Source: a virus
Lineage: Duplodnaviria > Caudoviricetes
Strand: one strand, 5' to 3'
Length of the DNA: 58,349 nt
IMG/VR virus record: IMGVR_UViG_3300009001_000013
Coordinates: 1-58,349 of that record
The notes beneath the pieces were generated by a model. The model did no database searches and was not told where the DNA came from. It worked only from the letters and a program-made list of their open reading frames with translations. Positions 10,248 to 37,525 of the stretch are shown in pieces (the stretch's first letter is position 1; each line of letters starts with the position of its first letter). Position numbers and translations under genes: made by a program.

Positions 10248-10255
10248 CAAATATA
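10248..10255 (-). promoter_or_regulatory. Bacteroidota -7 promoter element TATATTTG upstream of the portal
   Basis: CAAATATA on the plus strand in the TerL-portal intergenic gap. Confidence 0.65.
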
Positions 10256-13579: not shown

Positions 13580-13812
13580 TCAAAGTTGCAATCGTATTCA
13601 ATTAGAATCGGCTGGTTCTCAACCGTCTTCCAAATATACGTTGAATCTTCGTCCTCTAGGTAAACGTGGTATCTTCTTACGTTGTACTTGTACAGTGCGG
13701 CGTCATCTTCTTTGATTGCTGAGACCCTTCCTTTTCCTGCCTTCATCCCAATGTAATATGCCATCGCGTCCTTCGGGTTTGGCCCGATGACAATCTTTCT
13801 AATAATGTTCAT
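13576..13812 (-). CDS. Hypothetical protein
   Basis: 78-aa ORF (IIRKIVIGPNPKDAMAYYIG) coupled to the GroES-like gene by a 4-nt overlap. Confidence 0.7.
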   Translation of the reverse strand: MNIIRKIVIGPNPKDAMAYYIGMKAGKGRVSAIKEDDAALYKYNVRRYHVYLEDEDSTYIWKTVENQPILIEYDCNFE

Positions 13813-14977: not shown

Positions 14978-14985
14978 CAAATATA
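14978..14985 (-). promoter_or_regulatory. Bacteroidota -7 promoter element TATATTTG
   Basis: CAAATATA on the plus strand, 16 nt upstream of the ATG at 14961. Confidence 0.6.
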
Positions 14986-17834: not shown

Positions 17835-17842
17835 CAAATATA
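17835..17842 (-). promoter_or_regulatory. Bacteroidota -7 promoter element TATATTTG
   Basis: CAAATATA on the plus strand, 4 nt before the ATG at 17830. Confidence 0.7.
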
Positions 17843-18649: not shown

Positions 18650-18657
18650 CAAATATA
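18650..18657 (-). promoter_or_regulatory. Bacteroidota -7 promoter element TATATTTG
   Basis: CAAATATA on the plus strand, 4 nt before the ATG at 18645. Confidence 0.7.
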
Positions 18658-18658
18658 C

Positions 18659-20254: not shown

Positions 20255-20292
20255 CACAATAACATCAAAGCGATATACGTTCTACTACTGAA
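20255..20292 (+). promoter_or_regulatory. Early bipartite motif copy 1
   Basis: CACAATAA-N15-CGTTCTACTACTGAA. Confidence 0.65.
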
Positions 20293-20309
20293 CGCGATAG
20301 CTAAATAGA

Positions 20310-20729
20310 ATGTCAAACCAACCTAACACATTGATTATGAGTGAGATGACCAACAACAACAACGGAGTAGCCGCATCTGTAGAGATGGCTGAGATGATGC
20401 TCAAGAACGCCAGAGTGATGGCCGAGGCCGCCTTCGGGATGGCGAAATTTAACCTTGACTCTGTCAAGACTGAGCTGAGTGTCGCTGAAGAGCGGCTGAG
20501 CATTTACGACGGCATCAGCATGAAGAGTGAGACAGGGAAGCTGAACCACCGAGACGCCAAGGATTGCGTAGCCAACATCAAGGAACGCATGAGCATCGCT
20601 GAGCGTGAGATGGAGGCTAGCCGAGACGTGATGCAGAGCATCCGACGAGCACACATCAACGTGAAGGCCACGATGGGCTACGGAGACCTCCAAGGCTTGC
20701 AGGGATGCCTTGAGGCAGATGCACAATAA
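20310..20729 (+). CDS. Early hypothetical coiled-coil protein
   Basis: First plus-strand ORF after motif copy 1; start may be 20337; the stop lies inside motif copy 2. Confidence 0.65.
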   Translation: MSNQPNTLIMSEMTNNNNGVAASVEMAEMMLKNARVMAEAAFGMAKFNLDSVKTELSVAEERLSIYDGISMKSETGKLNHRDAKDCVANIKERMSIAEREMEASRDVMQSIRRAHINVKATMGYGDLQGLQGCLEADAQ

Positions 20730-20761
20730 TCAGGAAGCGAGAAACGTTACCACTATAGAAA
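20722..20761 (+). promoter_or_regulatory. Early bipartite motif copy 2
   Basis: CACAATAA-N15-CGTTACCACTATAGAAA. Confidence 0.75.
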
Positions 20762-20802
20762 CCAAGGGGAGGCAACTCCGTCTCCCCACAAATTCAATTC
20801 AG

Positions 20803-21711
20803 ATGAAGAAGAAAGTAGATGTATACCAGAAAGTGACCGACCGAATCGTAGCGGGATTGCAAACCAAGGGACTCCAATGGTTCAAGCCTTGGAGCGTGAA
20901 CGGGAGCATCGAGCACCCAATTAACAACGCTACAGGCCGTGCCTACAAAGGCATCAATGAGCTGTTCCTCACCATCGAAGGTCAGGAGAAAGGCTACGAG
21001 TTCAACGAGTGGTTGACCTTCAAGCAGGCTCAGGCCAAAGGTGGCAGTGTCCGCAAAGGCGAGTCCGGCACTGAGATTGTGTTTTGGAACATCGTCTTCA
21101 AGGGGGAGGACGGCAAGTTCTACCGCAAGATTCAAGATATCCCTCAAGGCATGGCGTTCGACAAGATTTTCAGCCCACGGCTATGGAACGTCTTCAACAT
21201 CGCTCAGTGCGACGATATCGAGCCACGCCGACCAAAGGCAGAGCCTACAGGTGAGTTCAACCCCATCGAATCGGCACAGGCTGTGTACGAGGCCAAGTAC
21301 CCCAAGGAGCAACGTCCCTCGTTGGCTCACGGCGGAGCGAGCGCGTTCTACAGCCCAAGCAAGCACCACGTGCAGATGCCGAAGCCTGAGACGTTCGTCA
21401 CCAACGACGACTACTACAAGACTCTGTTCCACGAGTTGGTGCACAGCACAGGCCACGAGACCATCCTCAAGCGATTGGAGAAGGTAGCTGCATTCGGCTC
21501 CGAGGCATACAGCAAGGAGGAGTTGGTCGCTGAGATTGGTGCGCAGTTCCTCGTAGGTCTGACAGGCATCTCGCCCAAGGACGATGAGGCCAACAGCCAA
21601 GCCTACATCAATGGGTGGGTCAAGAAGTTGCAGGACAAGCCAAAGATGGCTCTGTCAGCCGCGAACAAGGCGATGAAGGCAGTGAACTTCATCATGGGGG
21701 ACGAGGAGTAA
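20803..21711 (+). CDS. ardC: ArdC-like antirestriction / ssDNA-binding protein with C-terminal zincin domain
   Basis: YQKVTDRIV, WFKPW, PINNATGRAYKGIN, WLTFKQAQAKGGSVRKGE, VFNIAQ, FHELVHSTGH, YSKEELVAEIGA; ATG 20803 lies downstream of motif copy 2. Confidence 0.9.
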   Translation: MKKKVDVYQKVTDRIVAGLQTKGLQWFKPWSVNGSIEHPINNATGRAYKGINELFLTIEGQEKGYEFNEWLTFKQAQAKGGSVRKGESGTEIVFWNIVFKGEDGKFYRKIQDIPQGMAFDKIFSPRLWNVFNIAQCDDIEPRRPKAEPTGEFNPIESAQAVYEAKYPKEQRPSLAHGGASAFYSPSKHHVQMPKPETFVTNDDYYKTLFHELVHSTGHETILKRLEKVAAFGSEAYSKEELVAEIGAQFLVGLTGISPKDDEANSQAYINGWVKKLQDKPKMALSAANKAMKAVNFIMGDEE

Positions 21712-21726
21712 TCCTCTCCCCAACCC

Positions 21727-21808
21727 GGCCTGTATCCGCATACCACACTGCGCAGACGTGCGTGGTGGCAGGGGGGATGCTCACGAGGTTCGAGTCCTCG
21801 ACAGGTCA
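21727..21808 (+). ncRNA. tRNA-like element (acceptor stem and T-arm, no D or anticodon arm)
   Basis: GGCCTGT/ACAGGTC 7-bp stem plus discriminator A; CGAGG-TTCGAGT-CCTCG T-arm; interior folds as one long arm. Confidence 0.6.
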
Positions 21809-21838
21809 CAAAGCGTTAACGAATTTTTACAAGTAGGA

Positions 21839-21878
21839 CATACTAAAGCCAAAACTGAATCCGTTCTACTATCAAAGA
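21839..21878 (+). promoter_or_regulatory. Early bipartite motif copy 3 (variant)
   Basis: CATACTAA-N15-CGTTCTACTATCAAA, with an upstream TTAAC box at 21816-21832. Confidence 0.55.
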
Positions 21879-21886
21879 CACACACT

Positions 21887-22126
21887 ATGAAAGCATTTCC
21901 ATCAACACCAATCGCATACGCAAGCCTTCCCTACAAGGGAGTCATCAATCTGAACGAGCCGTTCATTGCGACCATCCAATTTGAGACAGGCAGTGCGTGG
22001 GGAAGAGGAGTATGGGATTTGACCAAGCGGTTCAATGACGAGACTCACATGGACAATTGGGTCAACCTGATGTGCCGCAAAAAGGGATGGACTCTCGACG
22101 AGACCTACCTCCTGTACAACAAGTAA
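21887..22126 (+). CDS. Early hypothetical protein (79 aa)
   Basis: ATG 21887 (MKAFPST) follows motif copy 3; the track's longer start overlaps the tRNA-like element. Confidence 0.65.
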   Translation: MKAFPSTPIAYASLPYKGVINLNEPFIATIQFETGSAWGRGVWDLTKRFNDETHMDNWVNLMCRKKGWTLDETYLLYNK

Positions 22127-22142
22127 AAAAAATCAGCCTGCG

Positions 22143-22182
22143 CACAATAACAAGAAACTCTTCTGCGTTATCACTATAGAAA
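22143..22182 (+). promoter_or_regulatory. Early bipartite motif copy 4
   Basis: CACAATAA-N15-CGTTATCACTATAGAAA. Confidence 0.75.
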
Positions 22183-22202
22183 GCAACATTAACACCATCA
22201 TC

Positions 22203-22481
22203 ATGAAAGCAATTCAGATAGACACCATGACCATCGGTCAGCAGTTCCTTCCCACTATCTTCAATGGAGACCTGTCTCACCTGCGCCCATCCGAGGAAAC
22301 TCTGATTGAGCAAGAGCATCACGACTACTTCCTGATGGGTGAAGAGAAATTCGGGGAGCGATTGGTGAGCATTGAGTACGAGTGCACTTCAAGTGACCGA
22401 TACATCTGCAAGTGTGACCTGACCCGACTCATCTCCGAATGCGTGGAAGTGAAGGTCATCGCAATGGTCAAGGAAGATTAA
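22203..22481 (+). CDS. Early hypothetical protein
   Basis: 92-aa ORF between motif copies 4 and 5; LPTIFNGDLSHL, C-x-C-D-L. Confidence 0.7.
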   Translation: MKAIQIDTMTIGQQFLPTIFNGDLSHLRPSEETLIEQEHHDYFLMGEEKFGERLVSIEYECTSSDRYICKCDLTRLISECVEVKVIAMVKED

Positions 22482-22500
22482 CAGCCGTTAACAACCTAAG

Positions 22501-22539
22501 CACAATAACAGACATCTGTCCGCGTTATTACTAAAGAAA
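22501..22539 (+). promoter_or_regulatory. Early bipartite motif copy 5
   Basis: CACAATAA-N14-CGTTATTACTAAAGAAA, upstream TTAAC box at 22478-22494. Confidence 0.75.
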
Positions 22540-22565
22540 GCAATTCAATTTAATCCTTTTACATT

Positions 22566-23729
22566 ATGGAAAACAAAGCATTGACACCCCAACAGAAAGC
22601 TGTAGTTGTACAGCTCGGCAACCTCCTCAAGGAGAAGAACCTTAACACCGAGTACCGCGTATCCACCGCCATCTTCGCAGAGTTTGCCCGCAATACAGCC
22701 AACACATTTGGCATCGTCCCAACTCCCGGATACTACACGCCGATGGAGATGCAGGTCAGCAAGGCACGCCGGAACGCTCTAGGTGAAGCTCTCGTCACCA
22801 CTGCCGAGCAATTCGACGAGCAGGCAGATGAACTCAAGACAGAGTGGGGCTACTACCGAGACATAGTAGTTGAGTTGATGGAGACCGAGTGCGACTTCCG
22901 AGTTTCTACCTACGAACTCCGGAGCATCATCCGCAAGGTTATTCGTGGCTCAATAGACTACAGGCAGTGCCAAGACCACAACGACGAGGTCAAGCGTGGA
23001 ATCAAGCGAGCCAAGTACCTCAAGAAGGTCAAGTTAGGTGACCCGTTGCGCAATGGCGTATCCGATGACACTCCGGTGTACGAGTTCACCGACGCTATGT
23101 TCGACGACCACATCCCTGAGTTCAACAACGTGCTGTTCATTGGGCATCAACTGCGAGTCGTCAAGGACAATGATGACAACACGTACAGCATTCAGAAACT
23201 GAATGGAACGTGGAAGTACCTCACCTTCACTGAGAACCTGCGCGACACCGTACTTCAGTTGCCCAAGCGTTTGGAAGATGCGGAGAAGCGTGCTGTGCGT
23301 GAGGCTATCGACCTGAGCAAAAAAGGTTTGTCTATCGCCAACGACCTGTTCACATCGTCGGAGGTGCTTGCGCTGGCTAACGCCCAAGGTGTCGAGCTAC
23401 CTGAGGTGAGCACCTTCGCAGTGTGCCGAGTCTCAGCAAACGGGCGCGAACCGTACAAGACTATTGCTTCGGGAGAGGTAAACGAGACCACAGCTATCTA
23501 CGTGGCCGAGAAAAACCTATCGTTCAGTGATGCCTTGAACCTCTGTAACATGATGAACAAGCAATTGATTCACGAGAATGCCGTTACCCGATTCACCAAC
23601 GCTGTCAACACAGCGCAGGAACTCCTTGAGTCTAACAAAAAAGACTTGGCCGAGGCTCAACAACTTCAGGCTGACTTCGTTCGACAGCTTGAAGAGTTCC
23701 GACAAACAATCGTGGAGGTAGCACAATAA
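22566..23729 (+). CDS. Early hypothetical protein (387 aa, C-terminal coiled coil)
   Basis: Long ORF between copies 5 and 6; the stop lies inside copy 6. Confidence 0.8.
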   Translation: MENKALTPQQKAVVVQLGNLLKEKNLNTEYRVSTAIFAEFARNTANTFGIVPTPGYYTPMEMQVSKARRNALGEALVTTAEQFDEQADELKTEWGYYRDIVVELMETECDFRVSTYELRSIIRKVIRGSIDYRQCQDHNDEVKRGIKRAKYLKKVKLGDPLRNGVSDDTPVYEFTDAMFDDHIPEFNNVLFIGHQLRVVKDNDDNTYSIQKLNGTWKYLTFTENLRDTVLQLPKRLEDAEKRAVREAIDLSKKGLSIANDLFTSSEVLALANAQGVELPEVSTFAVCRVSANGREPYKTIASGEVNETTAIYVAEKNLSFSDALNLCNMMNKQLIHENAVTRFTNAVNTAQELLESNKKDLAEAQQLQADFVRQLEEFRQTIVEVAQ

Positions 23730-23761
23730 GTGCTACTTCCTCACCGTTATAACTGTAGAAA
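23722..23761 (+). promoter_or_regulatory. Early bipartite motif copy 6
   Basis: CACAATAA-N15-CGTTATAACTGTAGAAA. Confidence 0.75.
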
Positions 23762-23779
23762 CCCTAAAAAACAAGAACT

Positions 23780-24259
23780 ATGGGATTAGATATGTACCTG
23801 ACTCGCAAGCACAACGTGCGCAATTGGAGTCACAGAGAAGACAAGCAGTACACCGTGACTGCGGAGTGTAACGGCAATGCCATCCCTTTCTTAGGAAGCA
23901 TAGGAAAGATTACCTCAATCAACGAGGAGGTGATGTGCTGGAGGAAGGCTAACGCTATCCACGGATGGTTTGTTGAAAACGTTCAGGATAACAACGATGA
24001 TTGCGGAGTGTACGAGGTAACTCTTGCCCAACTTCAAGAGCTACGGCACCTGTGCATCGAGGTTCTCCACGACCGAACCAAAGCAGAGCAGCTGTTGCCA
24101 TGTGTTCAAGGATGTTTCTTCGGAGGAACTGAGTACGACGAGTACTACTTCGAAGACCTTGAGAACACAGCCATGGTCATTAACAAGCTAGTGCTTGAGG
24201 CAATCGCAGCCAAGGCGAAGGAGCACTCAATGTGGTACGAATACAGCTCATCATGGTAG
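23780..24259 (+). CDS. Conserved phage hypothetical protein (MGLDMYL / WRKANAIH family)
   Basis: MGLDMYL...WRKANAIHGWFVENVQ...GCFFGGTEYDEYYFEDL...YSSSW, a widespread phage early-gene pattern. Confidence 0.8.
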   Translation: MGLDMYLTRKHNVRNWSHREDKQYTVTAECNGNAIPFLGSIGKITSINEEVMCWRKANAIHGWFVENVQDNNDDCGVYEVTLAQLQELRHLCIEVLHDRTKAEQLLPCVQGCFFGGTEYDEYYFEDLENTAMVINKLVLEAIAAKAKEHSMWYEYSSSW

Positions 24260-24339
24260 TCGATAGGGAAGCGAGAGGGAGATACATGGAGGAGCTGTGG
24301 AAGCAAATCGAGTCTCCCTCTCAATCGCTCCCCGACTAC
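24256..24339 (+). other. Long imperfect hairpin, candidate ncRNA or processing site
   Basis: GTAGTCG/CGACTAC, GGGAAGCGA/TCGCTCCCC, GAGGGAGAT/GTCTCCCTC nested stems. Confidence 0.5.
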
Positions 24340-24424
24340 GTCACTGAATGCAGATGCTTGGACTTCGAGGCAAAGCTGAATCTCGGATGGCCTGACCCAC
24401 GTTAACACCGGTTAACAAACTCAG

Positions 24425-24463
24425 CACAATAAACAGAAACCCGTGGCGTTAATACTGTAGAAA
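24425..24463 (+). promoter_or_regulatory. Early bipartite motif copy 7
   Basis: CACAATAA-N14-CGTTAATACTGTAGAAA, upstream TTAAC box at 24402-24418. Confidence 0.75.
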
Positions 24464-24482
24464 CCCACATAATTTAATTGAT

Positions 24483-24698
24483 ATGAGCAAACCATTTGAA
24501 CTTACCACATCAATCATGATGTACGAAAACGGAGAGATAAACGAGGTCAACGATGTGCTTGAGCTGTTCTCCGCACTCATCAAGACCGGGTTGGCTTGGC
24601 AACTCCAAGGCTTCTTCGGAAGGACTGCCCGTCACCTGATTGACATCAACGCAATTGCCGAGGACGGCACAATAATTTACGAGGAACTCCCGTTCTAA
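24483..24698 (+). CDS. Conserved small phage hypothetical protein
   Basis: YENGE...ELFSALIKTGLAWQLQGFFGRTA pattern; its 3' end runs through motif copy 8. Confidence 0.75.
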   Translation: MSKPFELTTSIMMYENGEINEVNDVLELFSALIKTGLAWQLQGFFGRTARHLIDINAIAEDGTIIYEELPF

Positions 24699-24707
24699 CT
24701 ATAGAAA
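24668..24707 (+). promoter_or_regulatory. Early bipartite motif copy 8
   Basis: CACAATAA-N15-CGTTCTAACTATAGAAA. Confidence 0.75.
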
Positions 24708-24724
24708 CGCAAAACAGATTTGAT

Positions 24725-25072
24725 ATGATGACACTCAAAGAGATTAAGGCCACGGCCAAAGAGATGACAGCAAACAAACGAGCAATGAACACTAAACACA
24801 CCCCCGGACCGTGGAAAGCAGCTGAATGCGGCAGTATTGAATTTAAAGATGGTTTTGTGGGCGAGGCCTACGATTACAACCCCGGTCATTACGGAGAAAA
24901 ACAAGAGGAACTGCCGGTAATGGCGAACGCCCGCCTGATGGCCGCCGCGCCTGAATTGTTGGAGGCGTTGAAGAAATTAGCACAACACACCCGCAAAGTG
25001 AACGGTATTTATTCTCCAGAATACAACAAGGCAATATGTTTAGTCAAAAAAATCGAAGGCGATGAAGAATGA
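24725..25072 (+). CDS. HTPGPW...ANARLMAAAPELLEAL family phage protein
   Basis: KHTPGPW and ANARLMAAAPELLEALK motifs. Confidence 0.8.
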   Translation: MMTLKEIKATAKEMTANKRAMNTKHTPGPWKAAECGSIEFKDGFVGEAYDYNPGHYGEKQEELPVMANARLMAAAPELLEALKKLAQHTRKVNGIYSPEYNKAICLVKKIEGDEE

Positions 25073-25310
25073 ACACACGCCCGGGCGGCCGTGGTATTAC
25101 GAGACACAACAATTCAAAGCCGACTTAGTAGCGGCATACACAAATCGTAAGGCTACAACCTGACCAACGAAACTCAAACGTCAGGGCGTAACCTGTCAAG
25201 AATTTACAAGCGAAAATGAACGATTACACAAGCGACTGTTGCGGAGGCAGTCCGTGACTACCTGCGAGACCTGACGCAAAGTGTAAAGGGAAACAGCCTC
25301 AAAGTGTAAA
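25062..25310 (+). pseudogene. Possible gene remnants
   Basis: MKNEHTPGRPWYY...(33 aa, 25062-25163) and MNDYTSDCCGGSP* (25216-25257) look like truncated gene starts. Confidence 0.35.
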
Positions 25311-25326
25311 ACGAATACTTAATATC

Positions 25327-25620
25327 ATGAGCTACGAATCATTTAAGAACAAAGAAACATGGCTCCTCAATGTGTGGGGATACATCGACGAGATTGCCAA
25401 CGAGTGGATAGAAAGCGACCAACCAAACGGAGCACACGTATCAGAAATCTCAGCAGACTACTGCAAAGAAAGCTTCATTGACATGGTGCGGGACACACTA
25501 AAGAAAGTTCCAAACGGAATCATCTCAGACTTCATCGAAGATGCATTGAGCACGATTGATTGGAGGGAGGTAGCAGAAACCGTGAAGGATACTGTACGAG
25601 AGCACAATGATGACCGTTGA
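25327..25620 (+). CDS. Early hypothetical protein
   Basis: N-x-ETW-L-x-N-V-W ... IDWREVA pattern common in phage early genes. Confidence 0.7.
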   Translation: MSYESFKNKETWLLNVWGYIDEIANEWIESDQPNGAHVSEISADYCKESFIDMVRDTLKKVPNGIISDFIEDALSTIDWREVAETVKDTVREHNDDR

Positions 25621-25810
25621 AGACATCAAGAAGAAGTATCTGTTAGGATATCATACCAAGGTGGTGCAGTTGGAATGTATCGAGATGCTTGACAAGGACT
25701 GGGTGAAGATGTTCACCGATGCACTAGAGGAATGTCCTCAAAAGAAAGGTGTGGTATTAGACTGCATCGAGTATAAGTTTAATGAATTAACTAAAAAGAA
25801 AGAGTCATGA
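25607..25810 (+). CDS. Hypothetical protein
   Basis: 67 aa; overlaps both neighbours. Confidence 0.6.
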   Translation: MMTVEDIKKKYLLGYHTKVVQLECIEMLDKDWVKMFTDALEECPQKKGVVLDCIEYKFNELTKKKES

Positions 25811-26031
25811 CAGACAACAATCGAACCTTCAGCCTGAGTTCAAACCCCGGAACCAAGTCCGGTGTACTGCAAATCGAAATCGGTAACACCATACTATCGG
25901 TGACTACCATCGAGGGCATCAATGAGATAGTCGTGTTCAGCAAGGATAGCAAGGACACTATCTCTGAAAAGAAAGCTGTTACGGATTTCAGTGAGGTCAT
26001 CCACATGATATGGAACCTAGAAAAACTCTAG
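25807..26031 (+). CDS. Hypothetical protein
   Basis: 74 aa; ATGA coupling. Confidence 0.6.
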   Translation: MTDNNRTFSLSSNPGTKSGVLQIEIGNTILSVTTIEGINEIVVFSKDSKDTISEKKAVTDFSEVIHMIWNLEKL

Positions 26032-26037
26032 GCCATG

Positions 26038-26076
26038 TACAATAAAGGCAAAGACGACACGTTAGTATGTGTAGGA
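26038..26076 (+). promoter_or_regulatory. Early bipartite motif copy 9 (variant)
   Basis: TACAATAA-N14-CGTTAGTATGTGTAGGA, heading the recombination/replication genes. Confidence 0.55.
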
Positions 26077-26120
26077 TGGCTCGGAGTCATCATCAGTTTA
26101 ATCATCATAATTCTAGTCAC

Positions 26121-26336
26121 ATGAAGATGCAAGAAAAAATCGGTGGGCTGTCCGTAACACGCCAATTCCAACTCCACGACAGGGAGACTGTATGTAAGCT
26201 GTTCCTTAACATCTGCAGGCAGTACGACCTCGGCAACATGACCGAAGGTGAGTTTGTTCAGAAATGCATGACGCTCAACGACGATGCGGAAAACTTAGGC
26301 ATCATTGATGACCCTCTAACTGCTTGGGAATCATGA
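26121..26336 (+). CDS. Hypothetical protein
   Basis: ATG 26121 (MKMQEK) preferred because the track start lies inside motif copy 9. Confidence 0.55.
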   Translation: MKMQEKIGGLSVTRQFQLHDRETVCKLFLNICRQYDLGNMTEGEFVQKCMTLNDDAENLGIIDDPLTAWES

Positions 26337-26596
26337 GCGCAAGCAAAATGTTTAAAACTTTGTGCGCTAATCTGTTGAAAAGCTCACGAAAAACCTCGAA
26401 CTTCGCCCAACAAGCAAACGCTGAACGTGAAGCCTACAAGAACCTGATAAGGCAACAGAGCGTATTGTTAGATGAGTACGAAGACTTACTTAAAGCCTAT
26501 GAAAAGAACGACGAAGAAGGCACTGATAGCAATGCCCCTTCTGATACTAGCAGCACTAGTTCAGCCGATAGTATTCCTGCAAAGGAGAATGCTTAA
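26333..26596 (+). CDS. Hypothetical coiled-coil protein
   Basis: ATGA coupling at 26333. Confidence 0.55.
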   Translation: MSASKMFKTLCANLLKSSRKTSNFAQQANAEREAYKNLIRQQSVLLDEYEDLLKAYEKNDEEGTDSNAPSDTSSTSSADSIPAKENA

Positions 26597-26624: not shown

Positions 26625-26635
26625 ATATCAGTTAA

Positions 26636-27181
26636 ATGGAACACAAGTTTAAAACCCTCAACATTCGTGGTAAGAATTACGTTGAAGTCCACGAACGTAT
26701 CAAATTCTTCCGGCAAGAAAACCAGTACAAGAACTGGACTATCTCAACGGAAGTAACCATGACAGATGACAGAGAAGAGTGCATCTGTAAGTGCATCATC
26801 GGAGATACAGAGCAACGTGTGATTGCCACAGGTCATGCACATGAGGTCAAGGCATCAAGCAACATCAACAAGACATCCTTCATTGAGAACTGCGAGACAT
26901 CAGCAGTAGGACGTGCACTAGCTATGCTCGGAATTGGCATCGACACTAGCATCGCTTCAGCCAATGAGGTTAAGGATGCAATTAAGAAGCAAAATGCTGA
27001 CAAACCAAGCAAACCCAGCGAGCCAACAGCTAACAACAGCAAGCAGGATTACGACAAGGCTGTTACTTTCCTGAAGAATTCTAAAGACCGAGCAGAGGCT
27101 TGGACTAAGATTGAGAAGCAGTGTAAGACTAAGTTTGATGAGGAGCAATACAACAAGCTCGTCGAATACGTCAACGGATAA
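26636..27181 (+). CDS. Single-strand annealing protein (Rad52/Sak-like)
   Basis: IRGKNYVEVHERI...ATGHAHE...SFIENCETSAVGRALAMLGIG; next to an exonuclease. Confidence 0.7.
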   Translation: MEHKFKTLNIRGKNYVEVHERIKFFRQENQYKNWTISTEVTMTDDREECICKCIIGDTEQRVIATGHAHEVKASSNINKTSFIENCETSAVGRALAMLGIGIDTSIASANEVKDAIKKQNADKPSKPSEPTANNSKQDYDKAVTFLKNSKDRAEAWTKIEKQCKTKFDEEQYNKLVEYVNG

Positions 27182-27945
27182 TGCTGAGTATCAAATTAGC
27201 TGAAGCTGTAGGCAAGGGGCATCTCTCATACAGCTCTATCAAGTACGCACTTCAAGACATGAAGTTGTGGGAGATGTACATGAGAGGACAGCTCTTCAAG
27301 GAGAGCGATGCGCTGACCTTCGGGAGTATGTACGACTGCCTCCTGTTCACACCTGAAGAGTTCGAGAAGCAATTCATGGTGATTGACGACGAGAAGAAGT
27401 GCGCAGAGATTGGTGGCCGTGCACCACGAATGACCAACAAGTACAAGGAGTGGGTCAAGCAGTGGGAAGATGACGCCGAAGAGAAAGGAGTAAAGCTCAT
27501 CGGGATTCAAGACTACAAGAAAGCCCACGAGATGATTGACAGACTAAAGGTTAGTGGTGTGCTTGAGCAATACCTCATCGGCGACTACCAACACGAGTTC
27601 AATCAAGAGATAAACGGTATTCCTGTTCGAGGATTCCTCGATTGCTTGAACAAGGAATACATAAGCGACCACAAGACTACCCGTAGTCTGTCTTCATTCA
27701 GGTACGCTGTTAAAGATTATGGCTACGACATTCAAGCCTACATCTACTGCACTGTACTCGGACTTGACAAGTTCTATTGGGTAGCGCAAGAGAAAGCTTA
27801 CCCGTATGCCATCGGTGTATTCGAGGCAAGCGAAGAGACCCTTGAACGGGGCAAAGAAAAGTTTGATACAGCTGTTGACCGAATCAATACGTACTTGGAC
27901 AACAACATTCAGACTGATACGTTCTACATTAAATCAATCATCTGA
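27181..27945 (+). CDS. PD-(D/E)xK exonuclease (RecE/ExoVIII-like, DUF3799)
   Basis: LSYSSIK, ALTFGS, VRGFLD, SDHKTT, YGYDIQAYIY, VAQEK..PY. Confidence 0.85.
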   Translation: MLSIKLAEAVGKGHLSYSSIKYALQDMKLWEMYMRGQLFKESDALTFGSMYDCLLFTPEEFEKQFMVIDDEKKCAEIGGRAPRMTNKYKEWVKQWEDDAEEKGVKLIGIQDYKKAHEMIDRLKVSGVLEQYLIGDYQHEFNQEINGIPVRGFLDCLNKEYISDHKTTRSLSSFRYAVKDYGYDIQAYIYCTVLGLDKFYWVAQEKAYPYAIGVFEASEETLERGKEKFDTAVDRINTYLDNNIQTDTFYIKSII

Positions 27946-28217
27946 TGACACCACATGAATTCATAACCAAAGCGAGCCTTCATTTCGGCTCAGACATGGG
28001 CCAGAAGTGCAAGTTTGGCGGAGCTACCTTTGATGAGCGGTGCATGACTGCTTACTACGCAATCAAGGAACTGCATATGCCTTACAAAGACCTTGCTAAG
28101 GTTATGAATTCTGACAACATTGAACTACGTTTGATGTGGTTGTTCGCAGAGGGTAACATGGGAGTTGTACAATCCCGCAACCGGTACATAAAATTTAATC
28201 AATCCTTTAATTCATAA
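27945..28217 (+). CDS. Hypothetical protein, weak DnaA domain IV-like HTH
   Basis: ERCMTAYYAIKELHMPYKDLAKVMN resembles DnaA R-x-x-A-M-Y-L-x-R-E-L...I-G. Confidence 0.5.
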   Translation: MTPHEFITKASLHFGSDMGQKCKFGGATFDERCMTAYYAIKELHMPYKDLAKVMNSDNIELRLMWLFAEGNMGVVQSRNRYIKFNQSFNS

Positions 28218-28221
28218 AGCC

Positions 28222-28485
28222 ATGGCTGATAACAGCAACAACGTGTATGTGGGGTACACTGAATCCCCACGAGTAACTCAGAAGATTAGCTTCACCTTGG
28301 AGGAGCTTGACAACCTGAAGCAGTATGCTACCTCAAAAGGTCGCGTGTATATCGAAGTCGTGTCTCGTCCTGACCGAGAAGACAATCGTAGAATGAAAGT
28401 ATTCTGCTCTGTCTACGACCCGAACGCACCGAAGGAGCAGCAACGTGCGTTGAACAAGCAGACATCCAACGAAGTACCCTTCTAA
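28222..28485 (+). CDS. Probable single-stranded DNA-binding protein
   Basis: Small beta-rich protein ending EVPF (SSB-type C-terminal tail) in the SSAP/exonuclease operon. Confidence 0.6.
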   Translation: MADNSNNVYVGYTESPRVTQKISFTLEELDNLKQYATSKGRVYIEVVSRPDREDNRRMKVFCSVYDPNAPKEQQRALNKQTSNEVPF

Positions 28486-28573
28486 GGATAGCAGGTAGGA
28501 AAGGTTTCTTGTTTTCCCTTTCCTGAGAGGGAGGTTGTTCGGCAATTTGGAATAATGTCAGCCTCCCTCGTAT

Positions 28574-28647
28574 GCTCCCGTAGCTCAGTTGGACAGAGCA
28601 TTTGCCTTCTAAGCAAACGGTCACAGGTTCGAATCCTGTCGGGAGTA
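28574..28647 (+). tRNA. tRNA-Arg (anticodon TCT)
   Basis: GCTCCCG/CGGGAGT acceptor, D-arm GCTC-AGTTGGACA-GAGC, anticodon arm TTTGC-CTTCTAA-GCAAA, T-arm ACAGG-TTCGAAT-CCTGT; CCA not encoded. Confidence 0.95.
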
Positions 28648-28730
28648 CAAACCCATCGTTATATGCTTAAGCATTCATGATGTAGCAATATTGCATCATT
28701 ATACGCCTAAACAGTCATTAATGATTCAAA

Positions 28731-28993
28731 ATCCCATCACCTTCCATGCATAGCTTACGCCGTAATTAAACTCAACCTTGTCGGGTGAGGTGGGATAACC
28801 AGTCTAGCTCCTTGTGGCCTGCATGGTAGGGTCACTAGATTAACTCTACTTGGAGCGACATGATTAAATCGGGGGCGTAGTGTGAAGGACATTGCCCGTT
28901 ATGGTTATCAAAGACTGACTGCTGGAAAGACAGCGTGTATTCCTACACTCGGGGGGAGTTAGAGGTCGTCCACCTCAGTATTCAGCTCCCCCC
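28731..28993 (+). ncRNA. Candidate structured ncRNA(s) downstream of the tRNA
   Basis: ORF-free region with five consecutive stem-loops or junctions. Confidence 0.45.
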
Positions 28994-29031
28994 ACCGTAG
29001 GATAAAATTGAATTAATTAAACCACAGATAG

Positions 29032-29616
29032 ATGAACATCTTTCAAGACACACTTGACGAGTACTGCCTTCAGATTGGACACAAGCCTGAGAGAAACAGA
29101 CTCAGGCACAACGTAGAAATGCGAGCGGCATTTGCCAATGGGGTCAACCCATTCTTTCATCACGCAGATATAGCTCACCTGTTTGGGTTGGAGCGAACGA
29201 GCGTGTATCACTACATCCGTAGCCACGAGACATACTATATGTCCAGCCCTGACTACCGTAAATGGTTTGCTATTGCATCACAGATTGTGGAGGAGAAAGT
29301 AGATAAAAAAGTACCTTTGCGTGTAAGGCCACAAGGCAAAAACAAAATCAACACGCATGAGCAAATTGACACCATCAAAAGGACTATCGAAGTCCTCGAA
29401 AGATTCCTTGAAAGATTCCAAATCAAAGTCACAGGACGTAAGGCCAAGTCACTACAAGACTGCGGGCAAGGAGGTGTACGAAATGATGAAGGACATCTGG
29501 GGGGAGGAGAAGTACATAGCGTTCTGCGAGATGAACAGCTTCAAGTACAGAATGAGGGCGGGCAAGAAGGAAGGCCAGCCATTGGAGACGGACATCGCGA
29601 AGGCGCAGTGGTATGA
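29032..29616 (+). CDS. HTH protein, DnaA domain IV-like
   Basis: RLRHNVEMRAAF...HADIAHLFGLERTSVYHYIRSH resembles the DnaA C-terminal HTH. Confidence 0.6.
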   Translation: MNIFQDTLDEYCLQIGHKPERNRLRHNVEMRAAFANGVNPFFHHADIAHLFGLERTSVYHYIRSHETYYMSSPDYRKWFAIASQIVEEKVDKKVPLRVRPQGKNKINTHEQIDTIKRTIEVLERFLERFQIKVTGRKAKSLQDCGQGGVRNDEGHLGGGEVHSVLRDEQLQVQNEGGQEGRPAIGDGHREGAVV

Positions 29617-29731
29617 ACAACAAGTAGAATCCCTGCGCAATGGAAAACAAGAGAGTAACAATTTACCCAACAATATATCGCACACAGGAAGCTCACATTA
29701 CGACGTTAGAGTATGTTCTAACGAGGATTAA
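29357..29731 (+). CDS. DUF3310 (SaV / T7 gp1.7-like) protein
   Basis: DVRPSHYK...EV.E.M...AFCEMNSFKYRMRAGKK...DIAKAQWY signature. Confidence 0.85.
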   Translation: MSKLTPSKGLSKSSKDSLKDSKSKSQDVRPSHYKTAGKEVYEMMKDIWGEEKYIAFCEMNSFKYRMRAGKKEGQPLETDIAKAQWYEQQVESLRNGKQESNNLPNNISHTGSSHYDVRVCSNED

Positions 29732-31436
29732 GGAGGGCAAGTCTCAGCCACGTGTTGAGGCTATCCGAAGTGGCGATAAGAAAGCTAAGCAGGAGCTTCC
29801 AGCTGTCTGCTTTAGTGGTGTGTTCTCCGATGGTGTTCGGAGTGACGAAACCTTGAAGTATCATAGTGGTCTTATCGTACTAGACTTTGACCACGTAGAT
29901 TCAGAGCGAGTAAAGTCGGCACTAGCCGGTGACAAGTACGTCATGTCCTGCTGGATATCACCAAGCGGTGACGGAGTCAAGGCATTGGTAGAGGTAACGA
30001 ATACGGAAAGGCATCGTGACCACTATCGTTCTCTTCGTGCATACTTTGACGACCAGTATGGGCTGGAGCTTGACAAGACAGGTGAGAATGAATCACGCGC
30101 TTGCTTTGAATCCTATGACCCGCAAATTGTAATCAAGGAGGAGTACGAGCGATACGGCGGCATGCTGTCTGAACGTTCAGAGAACCAGCAACTTCCAGAG
30201 CTTGGTGGTAAGACAGACTTCAGTAAGATTAATACTGCTGCTAGGATGATTGCCAAGGCTAATGATGGAGAGAAGCATCATATACTAGCAAAAGCCTCTA
30301 CTTTGATGGGAGGATTCATCGCGAGCGGTATCGTCGAAGAGGACGTAGCTCGATGGGTTCTTCAAAGGGAGATAGAGAAGCGAAATCCAAAAGACCTTGA
30401 CGGTGCGCTCAAGACTATTGACGATGGCATCAACAACGGCAAGAACCAACCCATTGGCGAGACGCTAAACGATGAGGAGAGGTTCAAGCGTGAGATGAAG
30501 CTGAATGATGGGGACATGTCCTTCATATCCAGTGATGATATTGATTACGATTGGATTGAGGAGTATGTGTATGGCAACATCCCTCTTGGGATGACTACTG
30601 GTAACTCGCGTGTCGATGAATACTTTGTGTTCAAGAAGGAGTTCGTCATGATTAACGGACACAGTAACATTGGTAAGACTACGTTTGCCTTGTGGATGCT
30701 CGTGGCTAGCGCGATGAACCATGATTGGAGGTGGGTAATCTACAGTGCTGAGAACAGAACAGCGGCAATCAAGATGAAGCTGATGACCTTTGCATTGAAT
30801 AAGAAGATGACTAGCACCACACATCAAGAGCGCAAGGCTGCTCGCAAGTGGGTAGAAGAACACTTCATTGTCATTGACAACAGCAAGACGTATAGCTACA
30901 TGGATGTTATTCTTTTCTGTGAGAAGGTGCACAGGCAGCAACCCATTGACGGTTTGTTTGTTGACCCTTACAACAGCCTCAAGACAGAGATGAGTTCAGG
31001 TCGTGGTATTGGTATGCACGAGTATCATTACGAAGCTGCATCAGAGTTCCTGACCTTCAGCAACAACATGAGTGTAGCTGTATGGGTGAACGCCCACAGC
31101 ATCACTGAGAGTCAGCGTAGAAAGGGCGACGATGGTTTACAGATAGCTCCATACGCAGAGGACACAGAACACGGCGGCAAGTGGGTGAACCGTGCTGATT
31201 GTTTTATCACCTTACACAGAAAGATTCAGCACCACGATGCAATTCAAAGGCGATGCGTAGAGATGCACGTTCGCAAGGTGAGGGAGGTTGATACAGGCGG
31301 TAAGCCCACCCCATTCCTTGAACCATTGATGTTCGAGTTCAACTCAACGCAATCAGGGTTTGGCTTAGCTGGCCCGGAGCCTAAGTTGTTCCCAACACTT
31401 AGTGAAAAACTTGTTGGTAAACAAAGTGAGATATGA
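29640..31436 (+). CDS. Primase-helicase (BT4734/VirE-N primase-like domain + DnaB-like SF4 helicase)
   Basis: LPAVCFSG, HSGLIVLDFDH, ISPSGDGVK; Walker A GHSNIGKT, YSAEN, FVDPYN, VRKVR. Confidence 0.88.
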   Translation: MENKRVTIYPTIYRTQEAHITTLEYVLTRIKEGKSQPRVEAIRSGDKKAKQELPAVCFSGVFSDGVRSDETLKYHSGLIVLDFDHVDSERVKSALAGDKYVMSCWISPSGDGVKALVEVTNTERHRDHYRSLRAYFDDQYGLELDKTGENESRACFESYDPQIVIKEEYERYGGMLSERSENQQLPELGGKTDFSKINTAARMIAKANDGEKHHILAKASTLMGGFIASGIVEEDVARWVLQREIEKRNPKDLDGALKTIDDGINNGKNQPIGETLNDEERFKREMKLNDGDMSFISSDDIDYDWIEEYVYGNIPLGMTTGNSRVDEYFVFKKEFVMINGHSNIGKTTFALWMLVASAMNHDWRWVIYSAENRTAAIKMKLMTFALNKKMTSTTHQERKAARKWVEEHFIVIDNSKTYSYMDVILFCEKVHRQQPIDGLFVDPYNSLKTEMSSGRGIGMHEYHYEAASEFLTFSNNMSVAVWVNAHSITESQRRKGDDGLQIAPYAEDTEHGGKWVNRADCFITLHRKIQHHDAIQRRCVEMHVRKVREVDTGGKPTPFLEPLMFEFNSTQSGFGLAGPEPKLFPTLSEKLVGKQSEI

Positions 31437-31460
31437 TTTGACCGCTTCGTAAATTGTATC

Positions 31461-31934
31461 ATGGCTATTCGCAGAAGAAAGAACCTGACGAAGCCACTGA
31501 AGGGGAGAAAGAAAAGAGACCTCAGCAGAGGCAAAGTAAAGCTTAAGTCAACCCTTGAGACTTACTGCTACGACCAGCTTAAAGAAGCAAAGCTAAAGTT
31601 CGAATACGAGTCCGAAACGTTTCAGTTGGTGGACTCGTTTCGGTATCCGGGTATTTACTACAAGTCAACCAGAGGCAAGGATGTAATGAGCGACGCTACC
31701 AACAAGGTGGTGTTAGCAATTAAGTACACCCCAGACTTCATTAGTCACGAGCATAGGTTTATCATTGAAACCAAAGGATACGTTCCATCCCAGCACACCT
31801 TTCCGTTGAGGTGGAAGCTGTTCCTAAAGTACATGCACGACAATGATATGGATGACTACATGCTATTCATTCCGAAGAACAAAAAACAGGTAGACCACAC
31901 CATTGAAATCATAAAATCCCACATCAATGACTGA
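31461..31934 (+). CDS. Endonuclease I-like / DUF1064-type PD-(D/E)xK nuclease (possible resolvase)
   Basis: KSTLE, FEYESETF, YTPDF, IIETKG. Confidence 0.8.
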   Translation: MAIRRRKNLTKPLKGRKKRDLSRGKVKLKSTLETYCYDQLKEAKLKFEYESETFQLVDSFRYPGIYYKSTRGKDVMSDATNKVVLAIKYTPDFISHEHRFIIETKGYVPSQHTFPLRWKLFLKYMHDNDMDDYMLFIPKNKKQVDHTIEIIKSHIND

Positions 31935-32148
31935 GCAGAAACTCAGTGAGCTTTACCACTACGCAACGGATGAGATACATAAGTTGACCGCCGAGCTGTA
32001 CGAAGAGCTGCACACAGATAAAGGCAGTCCGGAAAAGGACTGGCCTCTTACCCTTGAGAACGTAAGGAACTACAAGAAGGCTGTCATCATGGAGCTTGAG
32101 TCAATTAAGCACGCACTGAAGGAATTTAATGAACAGCAGCTACCCTGA
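31927..32148 (+). CDS. Hypothetical protein
   Basis: 73-aa helical ORF overlapping both neighbours. Confidence 0.6.
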   Translation: MTEQKLSELYHYATDEIHKLTAELYEELHTDKGSPEKDWPLTLENVRNYKKAVIMELESIKHALKEFNEQQLP

Positions 32149-32626
32149 GTTAACCGTCACTGACCCTATGGTTTGGGTGGCTGGAGCACGTGCCATGAAA
32201 ATGGGGCATATCAAGAATAGTATCACGGCTGGCAAGGCTAACCTAGAAGCATTCATCGCTGAGGAAGCGGTATCCAAATACCTGAAGCAAAAGCTTGAGG
32301 ACACTAAGGATTATGACATCCTCTGGGTTCCTGACGGAGAGCCCCTCACTGCAGATATCAAGACAAAAAGAAGGACTAAGCTGCCGTCTCCATACTTTGA
32401 TTGTCACATAGCGGACACGAGTCTGCACCAGCAATGCGATACCTACATATTCACATCGGTCATTCAGGAGGATGAGTGGTGGCGAGTATGGGTGCTTGGT
32501 TGGTTGACGAAGGATGAGTTCTTCTCGAAGGCTAAGCGTGTAAGAAAGGGTGATAAGGATGGTCAGTTCGTAGAGCACGTAGACGGATACAAGTGTAAGG
32601 TGTCAGACCTAAACCTAATGCCATGA
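32129..32626 (+). CDS. PD-(D/E)xK-like nuclease
   Basis: AFIAEEAV...DYDI...ADIKTK...CDTYIF...VWVLGW. Confidence 0.65.
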   Translation: MNSSYPELTVTDPMVWVAGARAMKMGHIKNSITAGKANLEAFIAEEAVSKYLKQKLEDTKDYDILWVPDGEPLTADIKTKRRTKLPSPYFDCHIADTSLHQQCDTYIFTSVIQEDEWWRVWVLGWLTKDEFFSKAKRVRKGDKDGQFVEHVDGYKCKVSDLNLMP

Positions 32627-33207
32627 GTTCATTTGACAAAGACGTACAGGTAGCTGAAAGAATTGAGCGTGCTTGGGGCGACTTTGTCCTGAACCATTAC
32701 CCAGTGTCTCATGTTGAATACAGCGAAGGCAAGGTTCCCGGATGGGATTTGAAGCTAAGGAACTACGATGGGAGAGCGAAGTTTCATGAGGTGAAGTTCG
32801 ACCAGTCTTCAGCTGCACCTTGGCTGAACTACAAAGGAGAAGAAAGAAGAGCGACAGGCAACCTCTTTATTGAATACAAAAACCCACGCTCAGGCAAAGA
32901 CTCTGGAATCATGGCGACATGTTCTGATTGGTGGGTGTACATTGTGAAGGAAGCTTATGAGCTGGTTGAGCTTGCTGAAGTTCACAAGTACAAAGCCAAA
33001 GCCTACATCATAAAGGCAGACCAACTAAAAGAATTTGTGGTGTCGGGCAATTTAACTAGCGTCCCTACCGTTAGGGATACTAAGAACGGAACGGTGAATG
33101 CAGAGGGCTGGCTTCTACCTGTCCATACTTTAAAATCTTCTGACGTAATCTGTTACGAGCAGGATTTTACGACGTATATTAGAGCCCTTTTTTCTTCTAA
33201 CCTTTAA
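32623..33207 (+). CDS. PD-(D/E)xK-like nuclease
   Basis: WDL...HEVKFD...TGNLFIEY...SGIMAT.SDWWVY. Confidence 0.7.
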   Translation: MSSFDKDVQVAERIERAWGDFVLNHYPVSHVEYSEGKVPGWDLKLRNYDGRAKFHEVKFDQSSAAPWLNYKGEERRATGNLFIEYKNPRSGKDSGIMATCSDWWVYIVKEAYELVELAEVHKYKAKAYIIKADQLKEFVVSGNLTSVPTVRDTKNGTVNAEGWLLPVHTLKSSDVICYEQDFTTYIRALFSSNL

Positions 33208-33217
33208 TCCATTTTTC

Positions 33218-35122: not shown

Positions 35123-35412
35123 GCAGTAAGGCAAGTAAAGAGTTCATTGCGAACATGAAGATGTTTCGTGTAGAGCAAATCATGCAAGTCTTAGTTGACG
35201 AGGAGGCCATGCTTGCCGATGGGTTTGAGTCCGCCCTGCTTGGTCATACTCAAGGTTCAAACATTGTAGCTGTGTACGACTTCGATATGTGTGTTCACAT
35301 CCTTATGGAACGCGACGGCATGACATGCGAAGAAGCGGTAGAGTTCATGGACTACAATGTCACTGGCTCTTACGTAGGAGAGAAGACTCCAATCTTTATC
35401 TCACTGGTATGA
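35119..35412 (+). CDS. Conserved phage hypothetical protein
   Basis: ADGFESALLG...AVYD...DGMT.EEAVEF..YN..G.YVGEKTP; ATGA coupling at 35119. Confidence 0.75.
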   Translation: MSSKASKEFIANMKMFRVEQIMQVLVDEEAMLADGFESALLGHTQGSNIVAVYDFDMCVHILMERDGMTCEEAVEFMDYNVTGSYVGEKTPIFISLV

Positions 35413-37074: not shown

Positions 37075-37525
37075 TGTATGTTATTGTTACCTCATCGCCA
37101 CACTCAATGGCCTCAGCTATTGGTGTATAGATTCTTTTGTATGCGTTTACCGAGCTGCCTACAAACCCATCAGACTGTACGTTCTCTGTCTGGGTGTCGC
37201 CCACCAGCAAGCAGCCACTAGTGTCGTCGTCGTCGTTACCAGCATGAATGAGTATGTATTCGAAGTTCGGCACGTTCCTTACCCATAGCATACCCTTATG
37301 AATATCCCCGAACCTGCTAGAGTATTTGGAATGAAAACCACCTACTGTTCTAAGAGTAATGTCGTATGTACCAGCAGGTATTCTCGTTTCGTGCATGACC
37401 TTTACATCTCTGTATTCATCCTCAAGAGTATAGGCCATGAACTTGCGGTCACCACTTGTGATGTCAAACAACAAGCCTAGCGTGCTGTCTTTCTGGCTGC
37501 TGAATCTTACTACTTCTAATTTCAT
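37043..37525 (-). CDS. DUF5675 family protein, putative endolysin (L,D-transpeptidase-like)
   Basis: STLG, YTLED, RIPAGTY, VPNFEYILIHAGN...TSGCLLVG; next to the holin. Confidence 0.8.
   Translation of the reverse strand: MKLEVVRFSSQKDSTLGLLFDITSGDRKFMAYTLEDEYRDVKVMHETRIPAGTYDITLRTVGGFHSKYSSRFGDIHKGMLWVRNVPNFEYILIHAGNDDDDTSGCLLVGDTQTENVQSDGFVGSSVNAYKRIYTPIAEAIECGDEVTITYIDFDGAEQKN

Follow-up and report, generated by a model that had tools for sequence, protein, structure and literature searches.

How transcription starts in the phages of Bacteroidota is little known. In the crAss-like phage phi14:2 a virion polymerase makes the early transcripts and the host polymerase the middle and late ones; the middle promoters resemble the primary-sigma type and, in the part of the report cited, the early transcripts are without a common upstream motif (bioRxiv 10.1101/2020.03.07.982082), such that an early reader has been identified and no early motif is described there. 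In N4 the early programme also belongs to a non-housekeeping enzyme and the late one to the host primary holoenzyme (PMC4496689). Among sigma factors, the iron-starvation box of PvdS is TAAAT-N16-CGT (PMC2235872), the scoring of promoters of extracytoplasmic function (ECF) sigmas allows spacers of 16-18 bp (PMC7776599) and Flavobacterium psychrophilum has an ECF-type motif, SM6, with a CGT -10 box (PMC9723704). Here we describe a two-block, promoter-like motif that recurs before the early genes of a phage, IMG/VR virus record IMGVR_UViG_3300009001_000013. The window is the whole stretch of DNA analysed, which is the entire record of 58,349 bp (CheckV completeness 100%, no end repeats). By content its genes form three blocks, minus strand 1-19308 (late), plus strand 20310-35412 and minus strand 35447-58349, and by the same measure the plus-strand block is the early region.

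A repeated two-block motif in the early region

The full motif is G-CACAATAA-N14/15-CGTT-N3-ACTNTAGAAA-CC, in fuller consensus G-CACAATAA-N14/15-CGTT-A-T-W-ACTATAGAAA-CC, and the window holds six full copies, all on the plus strand. The conserved parts are CGTT, three weakly conserved bases and ACTNTAGAAACC, plus a separate block 14 or 15 nt further upstream that reads ACAATAA (AAT), about 26 conserved positions in the whole signal. We gathered 51 distinct instances from the window and its relatives by search pattern, so the patterned positions, CGTT included, are selected; the leading G (47 of 51) and the trailing CC lie outside the pattern and their conservation is therefore unbiased. The ATG of an open reading frame (ORF) follows 9-41 nt after the motif in all 51 instances. 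The spacer is N15 in 29 and N14 in 22, giving AAT-N17-CGT or AAT-N16-CGT, and spacer sequences are unrelated between paralogous copies. An earlier note on this DNA had reported nine copies, all on the plus strand just before an ATG and with unrelated spacers of 14 or 15 nt. Strand, placement and spacers hold for all nine, and CGTT is present in 9/9, but only six copies are full (42-46 bits), those at 20255, 21839 and 26038 being degenerate or variant. The copies and the genes around them are as follows.

20310..26596, plus strand: early gene block served by the motif, with a 139-aa first gene, an ArdC-like gene and about 12 small proteins without known function
20255..20295, plus strand: variant copy before the first early gene, an exact CACAATAA-N15-CGTT and then CTACTACTGAAC (one base shorter); 3.3 bits
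20721..20763, plus strand: full copy before the ArdC-like gene, G-CACAATAA-N15-CGTTACCACTATAGAAACC; 44.8 bits; the TAA of the motif is the stop codon of the preceding gene
21839..21879, plus strand: degenerate copy before gene 21887-22126, CATACTAA-N15-CGTTCTACTATCAAAG
22142..22184, plus strand: full copy, N15, before the 92-aa gene 22203-22481; 43.2 bits
22500..22541, plus strand: full copy, N14, ACTAAAGAAA variant, before the 387-aa gene 22566-23729; 42.0 bits
23721..23763, plus strand: full copy, N15, ahead of gene 23780-24259 and overlapping the 387-aa gene at its stop codon; 46.2 bits
24424..24465, plus strand: full copy, N14, before the 71-aa gene 24483-24698; 43.8 bits
24667..24709, plus strand: full copy, N15, within the 3' end of gene 24483-24698, before gene 24725-25072; 44.4 bits
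26038..26076, plus strand: degenerate copy, TACAATAA-N14-CGTTAGTATGTGTAGGA
26636..35412, plus strand: replication/recombination block without motif copies of its own, presumably transcribed by read-through; an exonuclease, tRNA-Arg, a primase/helicase, an endonuclease and a B12-dependent ribonucleotide reductase are encoded here

Counts against shuffled sequence set these copies apart. CACAATAA-N13-16-CGTT occurs eight times in the window, always on the plus strand (0.02 expected from 100 shuffles), and seven of the eight stand at coordinates of the earlier note (20255, 20722, 22143, 22501, 23722, 24425 and 24668). The downstream half CGTTNNNACTNTAGAAA, with up to two mismatches, occurs six times, again only on the plus strand (1.59 expected; none of 100 shuffles attained six), and CACAATAA by itself eight times (1.9 expected). 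A scoring matrix trained solely on 45 instances from the relatives was then run on the window and on 20 shuffles of it. The sites at 20722, 22143, 22501, 23722, 24425 and 24668 scored 42-46 bits, the next best site of the window 6.6 and the best of the 20 shuffles 8.5; the degenerate copies at 21839 and 26038 fell outside the 22 best sites.

Conservation in related phages had been set beforehand as a test of the motif, and the motif is present in them. The exact 21-base pattern was found in 22 IMG/VR stretches, from at least 16 uncultured phage contigs, the alignable DNA of which is 70-79% identical to the window. Each of the five near-complete relatives has between 4 and 7 exact half-motifs, confined to a single strand and to 2.3-5.5 kb, and a control with the pattern reversed gave none. 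Four complete genomes (GC 0.431, 0.471, 0.486 and 0.516, a spread of 8.5 points) have 6, 6, 6 and 7 copies, which in each genome keep to one strand and follow the same consensus, although protein identity among these genomes ranges from 27 to 91% and many of the early genes are not shared. Early proteins are poorly conserved among the motif-sharing genomes, and a giant virion protein described below is 45-64% identical among genomes with the same putative promoters. At 45 loci having a primase/helicase 73-90% identical, copies, where they exist, lie on the gene strand only. The motif was absent from 35 loci with a helicase 36-38% identical and from the first 50 kb of Flavobacterium phage elemoA_7-9A, and k-mer counts showed no analogous repeated word in either. 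Two outlying relatives carry drifted forms, nACAATAA-N14-CGTTATTACTATATACA in L071 (39.6% GC), with TATATACA in place of TATAGAAA, and CAATAT-N14-CGTTA..ACTA.AGACA in L068; such natural variants reveal positions that tolerate change.

The three weak copies of the window are not noise, because relatives hold fuller orthologous copies of two and a conserved variant of the third. Sites orthologous to 21839 are near-consensus in L051, L057, L060-L062, L075 and L076, those orthologous to 26038 read CACAATAA-N15-CGTTGTAG(A/C)TGTATAAA in L057, L060-L062 and L075, and the 20255 variant is conserved, together with its leader, in L045, L057, L060 and L061. The motif is real, with six full copies and three decayed or variant ones, and the 20255 copy may be under other control than the six strong ones. 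Outside phages, a near-full pattern had one match in bacterial and archaeal genomes (596 billion bases; 185,579 species), in a candidate-phylum metagenome-assembled genome (MAG) that gave no blastn similarity to the window. Literature searches with the motif string and for Cellulophaga and Flavobacterium phage promoters returned nothing about the early signal.

Several features accompany single copies. The leader of the first early gene (20278-20309, ending in AACGCGATAGCTAAATAGA before the ATG) is near-unchanged in relatives, the protein being just 45-66% identical, and upstream of the first early promoter, in a 1-kb non-coding region, a 14-nt word (consensus about GCNCCNAAACTTTT) occurs three times at 20071-20243 on the plus strand. 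The leader of the ArdC-like gene contains, directly behind the putative promoter, a GC-rich 6-bp hairpin (GGGGAG ... CTCCCC, 20766-20787, plus strand), which follows the orthologous promoter in L010, L012, L024 and L029 with differing loop bases and could be a regulatory or stabilising 5' structure. Promoter 24668 directly precedes the ortholog of gene 25327 in relatives L014, L042, L043 and L045; in the window about 620 bp (24708-25326, plus strand) with gene 24725-25072 (phrog_1273) intervene. Part of this segment matches Ralstonia phages (84-90% over 48-56 nt) and also unrelated metatranscriptome contigs, and the segment has the appearance of a mobile gene that landed downstream of a strong promoter. 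A short dyad of 3-5 bp is present in 16 of 42 distinct spacers, chiefly of the N14 class (mean stem 2.50 versus 2.05 in shuffles); among orthologous spacers of the window and L009-L030 the pairing is kept with changed bases, as in GCA/TGC versus GAC/GTC, these spacers being in many cases orthologs and so not independent. The eighth CACAATAA-N13-16-CGTT, an N15 form at 3385-3411 (plus strand), is antisense within the minus-strand gene 3151-4425 and has no downstream block. It is probably a chance occurrence because none of five relatives has a copy outside the early cluster; a CGTT at the right distance has about a 1% chance.

The late genes carry a different signal. The Bacteroidota sigma-A promoter has TTTG at -33 and TAnnTTTG at -7 (PMC7366714). 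Boxes of the -7 type, TATATTTG, number seven in the window, all on the minus strand (1.15 expected), and six of the seven lie 4-24 nt before an ATG, the remaining one 52 nt before a GroES-like gene.

185..192, minus strand: TATATTTG box, 4 nt before an ATG
10248..10255, minus strand: TATATTTG box before the portal gene
13631..13638, minus strand: TATATTTG box, 52 nt before the GroES-like gene
14978..14985, minus strand: TATATTTG box before a 279-aa gene
17835..17842, minus strand: TATATTTG box, 4 nt before the ATG of a 403-aa gene
18650..18657, minus strand: TATATTTG box, 4 nt before an ATG
57043..57050, minus strand: TATATTTG box before an adaptor-like gene

Late mRNAs made from the boxes at 185-192, 17835-17842 and 18650-18657 would be leaderless or nearly so, because the box is 4 nt from the ATG. 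No TAnnTTTG was found at or near the nine motif copies; the plus strand has eight in the whole window and none in 20000-26000. A scan of 19000-29000 with a sigma-70-type consensus gave eight sites versus 11.0 expected. The early motif is not a Bacteroidota sigma-A promoter, and the distinction drawn earlier between it and the housekeeping promoter, which sits on the late and structural genes, is borne out.

Comparison with known promoters and search for a reader

The motif shares with ECF promoters its two blocks, AAT and then CGT 16-17 nt on, a one-base play in the spacer and the position of CGT in the -10 region; nine conserved bases make up its -35 block. The likeness to SM6 comes from the CGT box described for that motif. 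ECF promoters are further marked by a start some 6-10 nt past the -10 block and by a cognate sigma, which is often autoregulated. An ECF-like geometry of AAT-N16/17-CGT had been proposed before, and it agrees with both the PvdS box and the SM6 box as given in the parts of those papers cited. Promoters of the SP6/T7 type also resemble the motif in having a conserved block that spans the start, high information content and one copy per small transcription unit, and CACTATAGAA, present in two window copies, is also the end of the SP6 promoter string. G is the start base of the SP6 promoter. However, the SP6/T7 type is one contiguous block of about 20 bp that stops shortly past the start, whereas in the motif the bases just upstream of the core are unconserved, an extra block lies about 35 nt upstream and the spacing varies. 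Moreover, L071 varies the start base (TATATACA), unlike promoters of that type.

As described in the cited part of its report, phi14:2 shares with the window phage a Bacteroidota host, a crAss-type ejection module, early genes that are not on housekeeping promoters, and later genes on primary-sigma-like promoters for the host polymerase. It differs in having the gp66 polymerase with a conserved DFDID and no early motif there described, whereas in the window phage a strong motif is present and no such polymerase was found. The clade is not simply a copy of the phi14:2 system. N4, again within the cited part, is similar in the giant virion protein (about 3,300-3,500 aa) that is ejected with the DNA and in leaving its late genes to the host holoenzyme. 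The suggestion that such a programme would reverse the usual order was overstated, as non-housekeeping early and host-holoenzyme late transcription are already described for both phages. In the N4 giant protein a T7-like domain reads the early promoters, which are hairpins with a 5-7-bp stem. In the motif only 8 of 42 distinct spacers have a perfect stem of at least 4 bp (5 bp in two, 4 bp in six and 3 bp or less in 34), and no polymerase domain was found in the giant protein of the window phage, residues 1000-3309 of which were modelled.

Searches for a reader encoded by the phage were negative throughout. All 62 called proteins were run against Pfam, ten singly and 52 via alignment with 25 matching families, and no sigma or RNA polymerase (RNAP) family appeared. 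NCBIfam gave none for ten virion-block proteins and, for the remaining 52, none in the 25 best-ranking of 44 families, and searches of PHROGs, PDB profiles and folds found no sigma or RNAP in the phage. Six-frame searches with Sigma70_r2 and Sigma70_r4_2 were negative in the window and in all five relatives (two with terminal repeats), the controls being positive in 11 and 14 of 14 genomes, respectively. PF00940, the T7-type RNA polymerase, was absent from the hmmscan of the 62 proteins; a six-frame search with it was silent in every control, among them Ralstonia phage RSK1 (possibly without the gene), and is not counted as evidence. DxDGD occurs once in six frames, within a 268-aa structural protein. 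The earlier statement that no cognate sigma or RNAP is visible stands for the window and extends to the five relatives. As for transcripts, the sole RNA run found (a metatranscriptome, 5% of sampled words) gave contigs that cover 24789-25247, in the mobile module, and the tRNA only.

The second minus-strand block (35447-58349) encodes a holin, a crAss-type muzzle of 1,738 aa, a giant virion protein of 3,309 aa and two further proteins of 615 and 318 aa.

37522..47451, minus strand: giant polyvalent-type protein, 3,309 aa, with HExxH at 867, GNAT at about 1030-1190, a mobile domain at about 1240-1500 and a conserved helical C-terminal module at 1894-3309
47463..49310, minus strand: 615-aa protein between muzzle and giant protein, a possible cargo protein (lead only; Atlas score 0.91 to the crAss_CARGO2 cluster)
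50262..55478, minus strand: crAss-type muzzle protein, 1,738 aa (PF25731 E 4.5e-17, PF25729 E 7.6e-10, phrog_14478 E 1.2e-93)

A hidden Markov model search of the 615-aa protein with PF25712 (Pfam) gave no match, so that the crAss_CARGO2 lead was not confirmed. The giant protein has glycine-rich hydrophobic stretches at about 390-640. PDB sequence searches with the protein and with a 28-member family profile gave nothing below E 0.25. The AlphaFold model of residues 1000-2110 (mean predicted local distance difference test score, pLDDT, 74.5; predicted template modelling score, pTM, 0.41) resembles GNAT acetyltransferases by Foldseek (E 4.2e-4) and by VIA (Z 10.5, root-mean-square deviation (rmsd) 3.0 over 139 aligned residues); since hits to this domain took up both match lists, the model's remaining domains were only weakly tested. 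The model of residues 2110-3309 (pLDDT 76.9, pTM 0.69) is all-helical. It had no Foldseek match in the PDB at E <= 0.001, and VIA-wide its best score was Z 7.3, to small helical bundles. Against BFVD it matched 117 viral proteins at E <= 0.001, many of them named ART-PolyVal, nuclease, N-acetyltransferase or LPD and one an elemo 'structural protein'; in the Atlas the C-terminal part fell with unnamed viral clusters and one cluster with LPD39 in 55% of its members. No polymerase fold was seen over the 2,310 modelled residues (1000-3309 of 3,309), and no T7-type motif B or C was found by pattern in the protein. Two candidate likenesses were rejected: a PhiM1 ejectosome chain (Z 6.3, rmsd 4.5, 214 aligned) lies under the kinship level for helical proteins, and for a crAss gp66-type polymerase the sole D-hydrophobic-D-x-D, DLDID at 2327, is not kept in 14 of the 16 homologs aligned.

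Because the giant protein has HExxH and a GNAT fold, and its homologs carry PF18760, PF18857, PF18838 and PF23802, it is a polyvalent ejection protein as PMC5512222 uses the term, with several unrelated effector-type domains in one giant polypeptide; the domain at 1240-1500 is common to proteins with PF18760 or PF18857. Polyvalent proteins as described there share with it the zincin motif, the GNAT fold, the mobile domain and the widespread C-terminal module. This likeness concerns the giant protein and not the motif, and it shows no link to transcription; T4 Alt, which modifies the host polymerase (PMC5512222), is no more than an analogy.

Explanations for the motif

We infer from the sequence that the motif is a promoter, where its start site would lie and what kind of sigma, of what origin, may read it. 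Each small early transcription unit would have its own promoter copy. The upstream blocks would be the -35 (GCACAAT) and -10 (CGTTA) elements of a group-4 (ECF-type) sigma on host core RNAP, 16-17 bp apart, with a predicted start of transcription within or beside the third block (ACTATAG|AAA), some 9-10 nt past CGT. The late genes would be left to the host primary sigma-A holoenzyme acting from the TATATTTG boxes. Our tentative preference is that host RNAP with an ECF-type, probably host-encoded sigma reads the early promoters, a possibility we favour and hold short of probable. A sigma on the host polymerase is favoured because no polymerase was found, the geometry is that of ECF promoters and the spacer shows a one-base play. 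Host origin is favoured because no sigma or polymerase was found in the phage and the signal hardly changes while phage proteins, the giant protein among them (45-64% identical), diverge.

A number of points weigh against this. ECF promoters usually have AAC at -35 and the motif has AAT, although the PvdS box shows AAT in some ECF groups, and the roughly 10 conserved bases around the putative start have no counterpart in ECF promoters. That start-site block and the length of about 26 positions resemble instead the promoters of single-subunit phage polymerases. Divergent phage sigmas frequently escape Pfam, and the fold models cover only residues 1000-3309 of the giant protein. The whole signal is in just one unrelated MAG, so that no host promoter with it is known. 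Host ECF sigmas are usually kept inactive by anti-sigmas, and a trigger would be needed. With a GC range of 43-52% the clade may have several host genera, all of which would need the same sigma specificity. Finally, the metatranscriptome contigs, with 90-99% likeness and loose ends, are silent on starts.

Many of the same observations bear on a factor supplied by the phage and entering with the DNA, either an unrecognised RNAP or a sigma-like adaptor in the virion, whose seat could be the first 1,000 residues of the giant protein, one of the two proteins (615 and 318 aa) beside the muzzle or some other virion protein. We regard such a reader, the chief alternative, as doubtful, and keep it alive because the start-site block is long, because bacterial genomes lack the full signal save for one unrelated match and because of the crAss and N4 precedents of ejected polymerases. 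The phage has a crAss-type tail/ejection module, for which phi14:2 with its early virion polymerase is the precedent, yet the early transcripts of phi14:2 are described in the cited part as lacking a common motif, and to that extent the precedent differs. About 26 conserved positions and a start block containing the CACTATAGAA of SP6 are as expected of a dedicated enzyme, and the motif is kept in phages of 43-52% GC. However, dedicated polymerases and their promoters usually drift together, and here the giant protein diverges while the promoters stay the same. One-base spacer play is typical of recognition by sigma factors and not by single-subunit polymerases. The position of the giant protein next to the muzzle and the possible cargo protein is a lead in favour; against it, the protein shows no conserved DxDxD and, by pattern, no T7-type motif B or C, no polymerase fold was seen in its 2,310 modelled residues and the 62 proteins gave no polymerase or sigma family.

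Alternatively, the copies could be delayed-early or middle promoters that need an immediate-early phage product, a divergent sigma or an activator with an appropriator like MotA/AsiA of T4, the programme then opening from some other signal, perhaps the first gene's variant promoter or one of the sigma-A boxes on the leftward genes. T4 middle promoters do have two blocks, with an upstream box that replaces the -35 element; the first-gene copy is a distinct variant with its own conserved leader in the relatives too; and the leftward genes beside the 1-kb intergenic region have sigma-A boxes and encode small, strongly conserved proteins without known function (61 aa, 84-90% identical; 88 aa, 70-73%). 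Such a cascade nonetheless seems quite improbable: the first early gene itself has CACAATAA-N15-CGTT, no plus-strand sigma-A box lies before or within the early block, and no candidate has a match to a sigma or DNA-binding family, the early proteins being poorly conserved. Very improbable, in our estimation, is that the motif is no promoter and serves as an RNA-processing site, a strand-specific nick or replication signal or a repressor operator. Strand specificity and intergenic placement would also fit processing sites, some podophages have bipartite strand-specific nick signals, and the spacer dyads (at least 3 bp in 16 of 42) could be an operator, but the spacers counted are in many cases orthologs and not independent. 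No conserved RNA structure was found in the motif, in which Rfam saw nothing (the tRNA is its sole match in the window). A layout of two blocks around an unconserved 14- or 15-nt spacer, set at a short and constant distance from each ATG, is typical of promoters, and the plus-strand block of about 15 kb has no other promoter-like signal.

If the preferred reading, a host ECF-type sigma, is taken further, a polymerase-less crAss-type podophage lineage might run its whole early programme on a host sigma that it activates at ejection, for example by the zincin or acetyltransferase domains of the injected polyvalent protein acting on an anti-sigma or on the polymerase, with the start-site block outcompeting the host ECF regulon. 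This fuller scenario we think unlikely.

The phage and its clade

The late block at 1-19308 encodes the terminase (phrog_6681, E 3.4e-203), the portal (phrog_6547, E 7.1e-196) and fibre-like proteins, and the ArdC-like anti-restriction protein of the early block (20803-21711, plus strand) matches phrog_7245 (E 4.4e-71). Replication is represented by a PrimPol-type primase/helicase, an exonuclease and an endonuclease; a DNA polymerase family was absent among the 25 Pfam families of the 52 proteins scanned together. When the ends of the record are joined, a 72-aa ORF crosses the junction, starting behind the TATATTTG box at 185-192, which fits a circularly permuted or complete assembly. The cultured phages nearest by muzzle protein (27-29% identity) infect Flavobacterium (68 records), Cellulophaga (15), Tenacibaculum (2) and Maribacter (1), and the host is for this reason most likely among the Flavobacteriia. 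The clade comprises podophages of about 53-61 kb with a crAss-type muzzle, infecting Bacteroidota and probably Flavobacteriia.

The clade is the opposite of phi14:2 as described, having a sharply defined putative early promoter without a visible reader in at least 16 uncultured phage contigs. Within it the motif is a practical marker of the early region and of the gene strand. If the reader is a phage protein, it would be a factor or polymerase that current profiles and fold libraries miss; if it is a host ECF sigma, it would be unusual for a lytic phage to depend in this way on a stress sigma.

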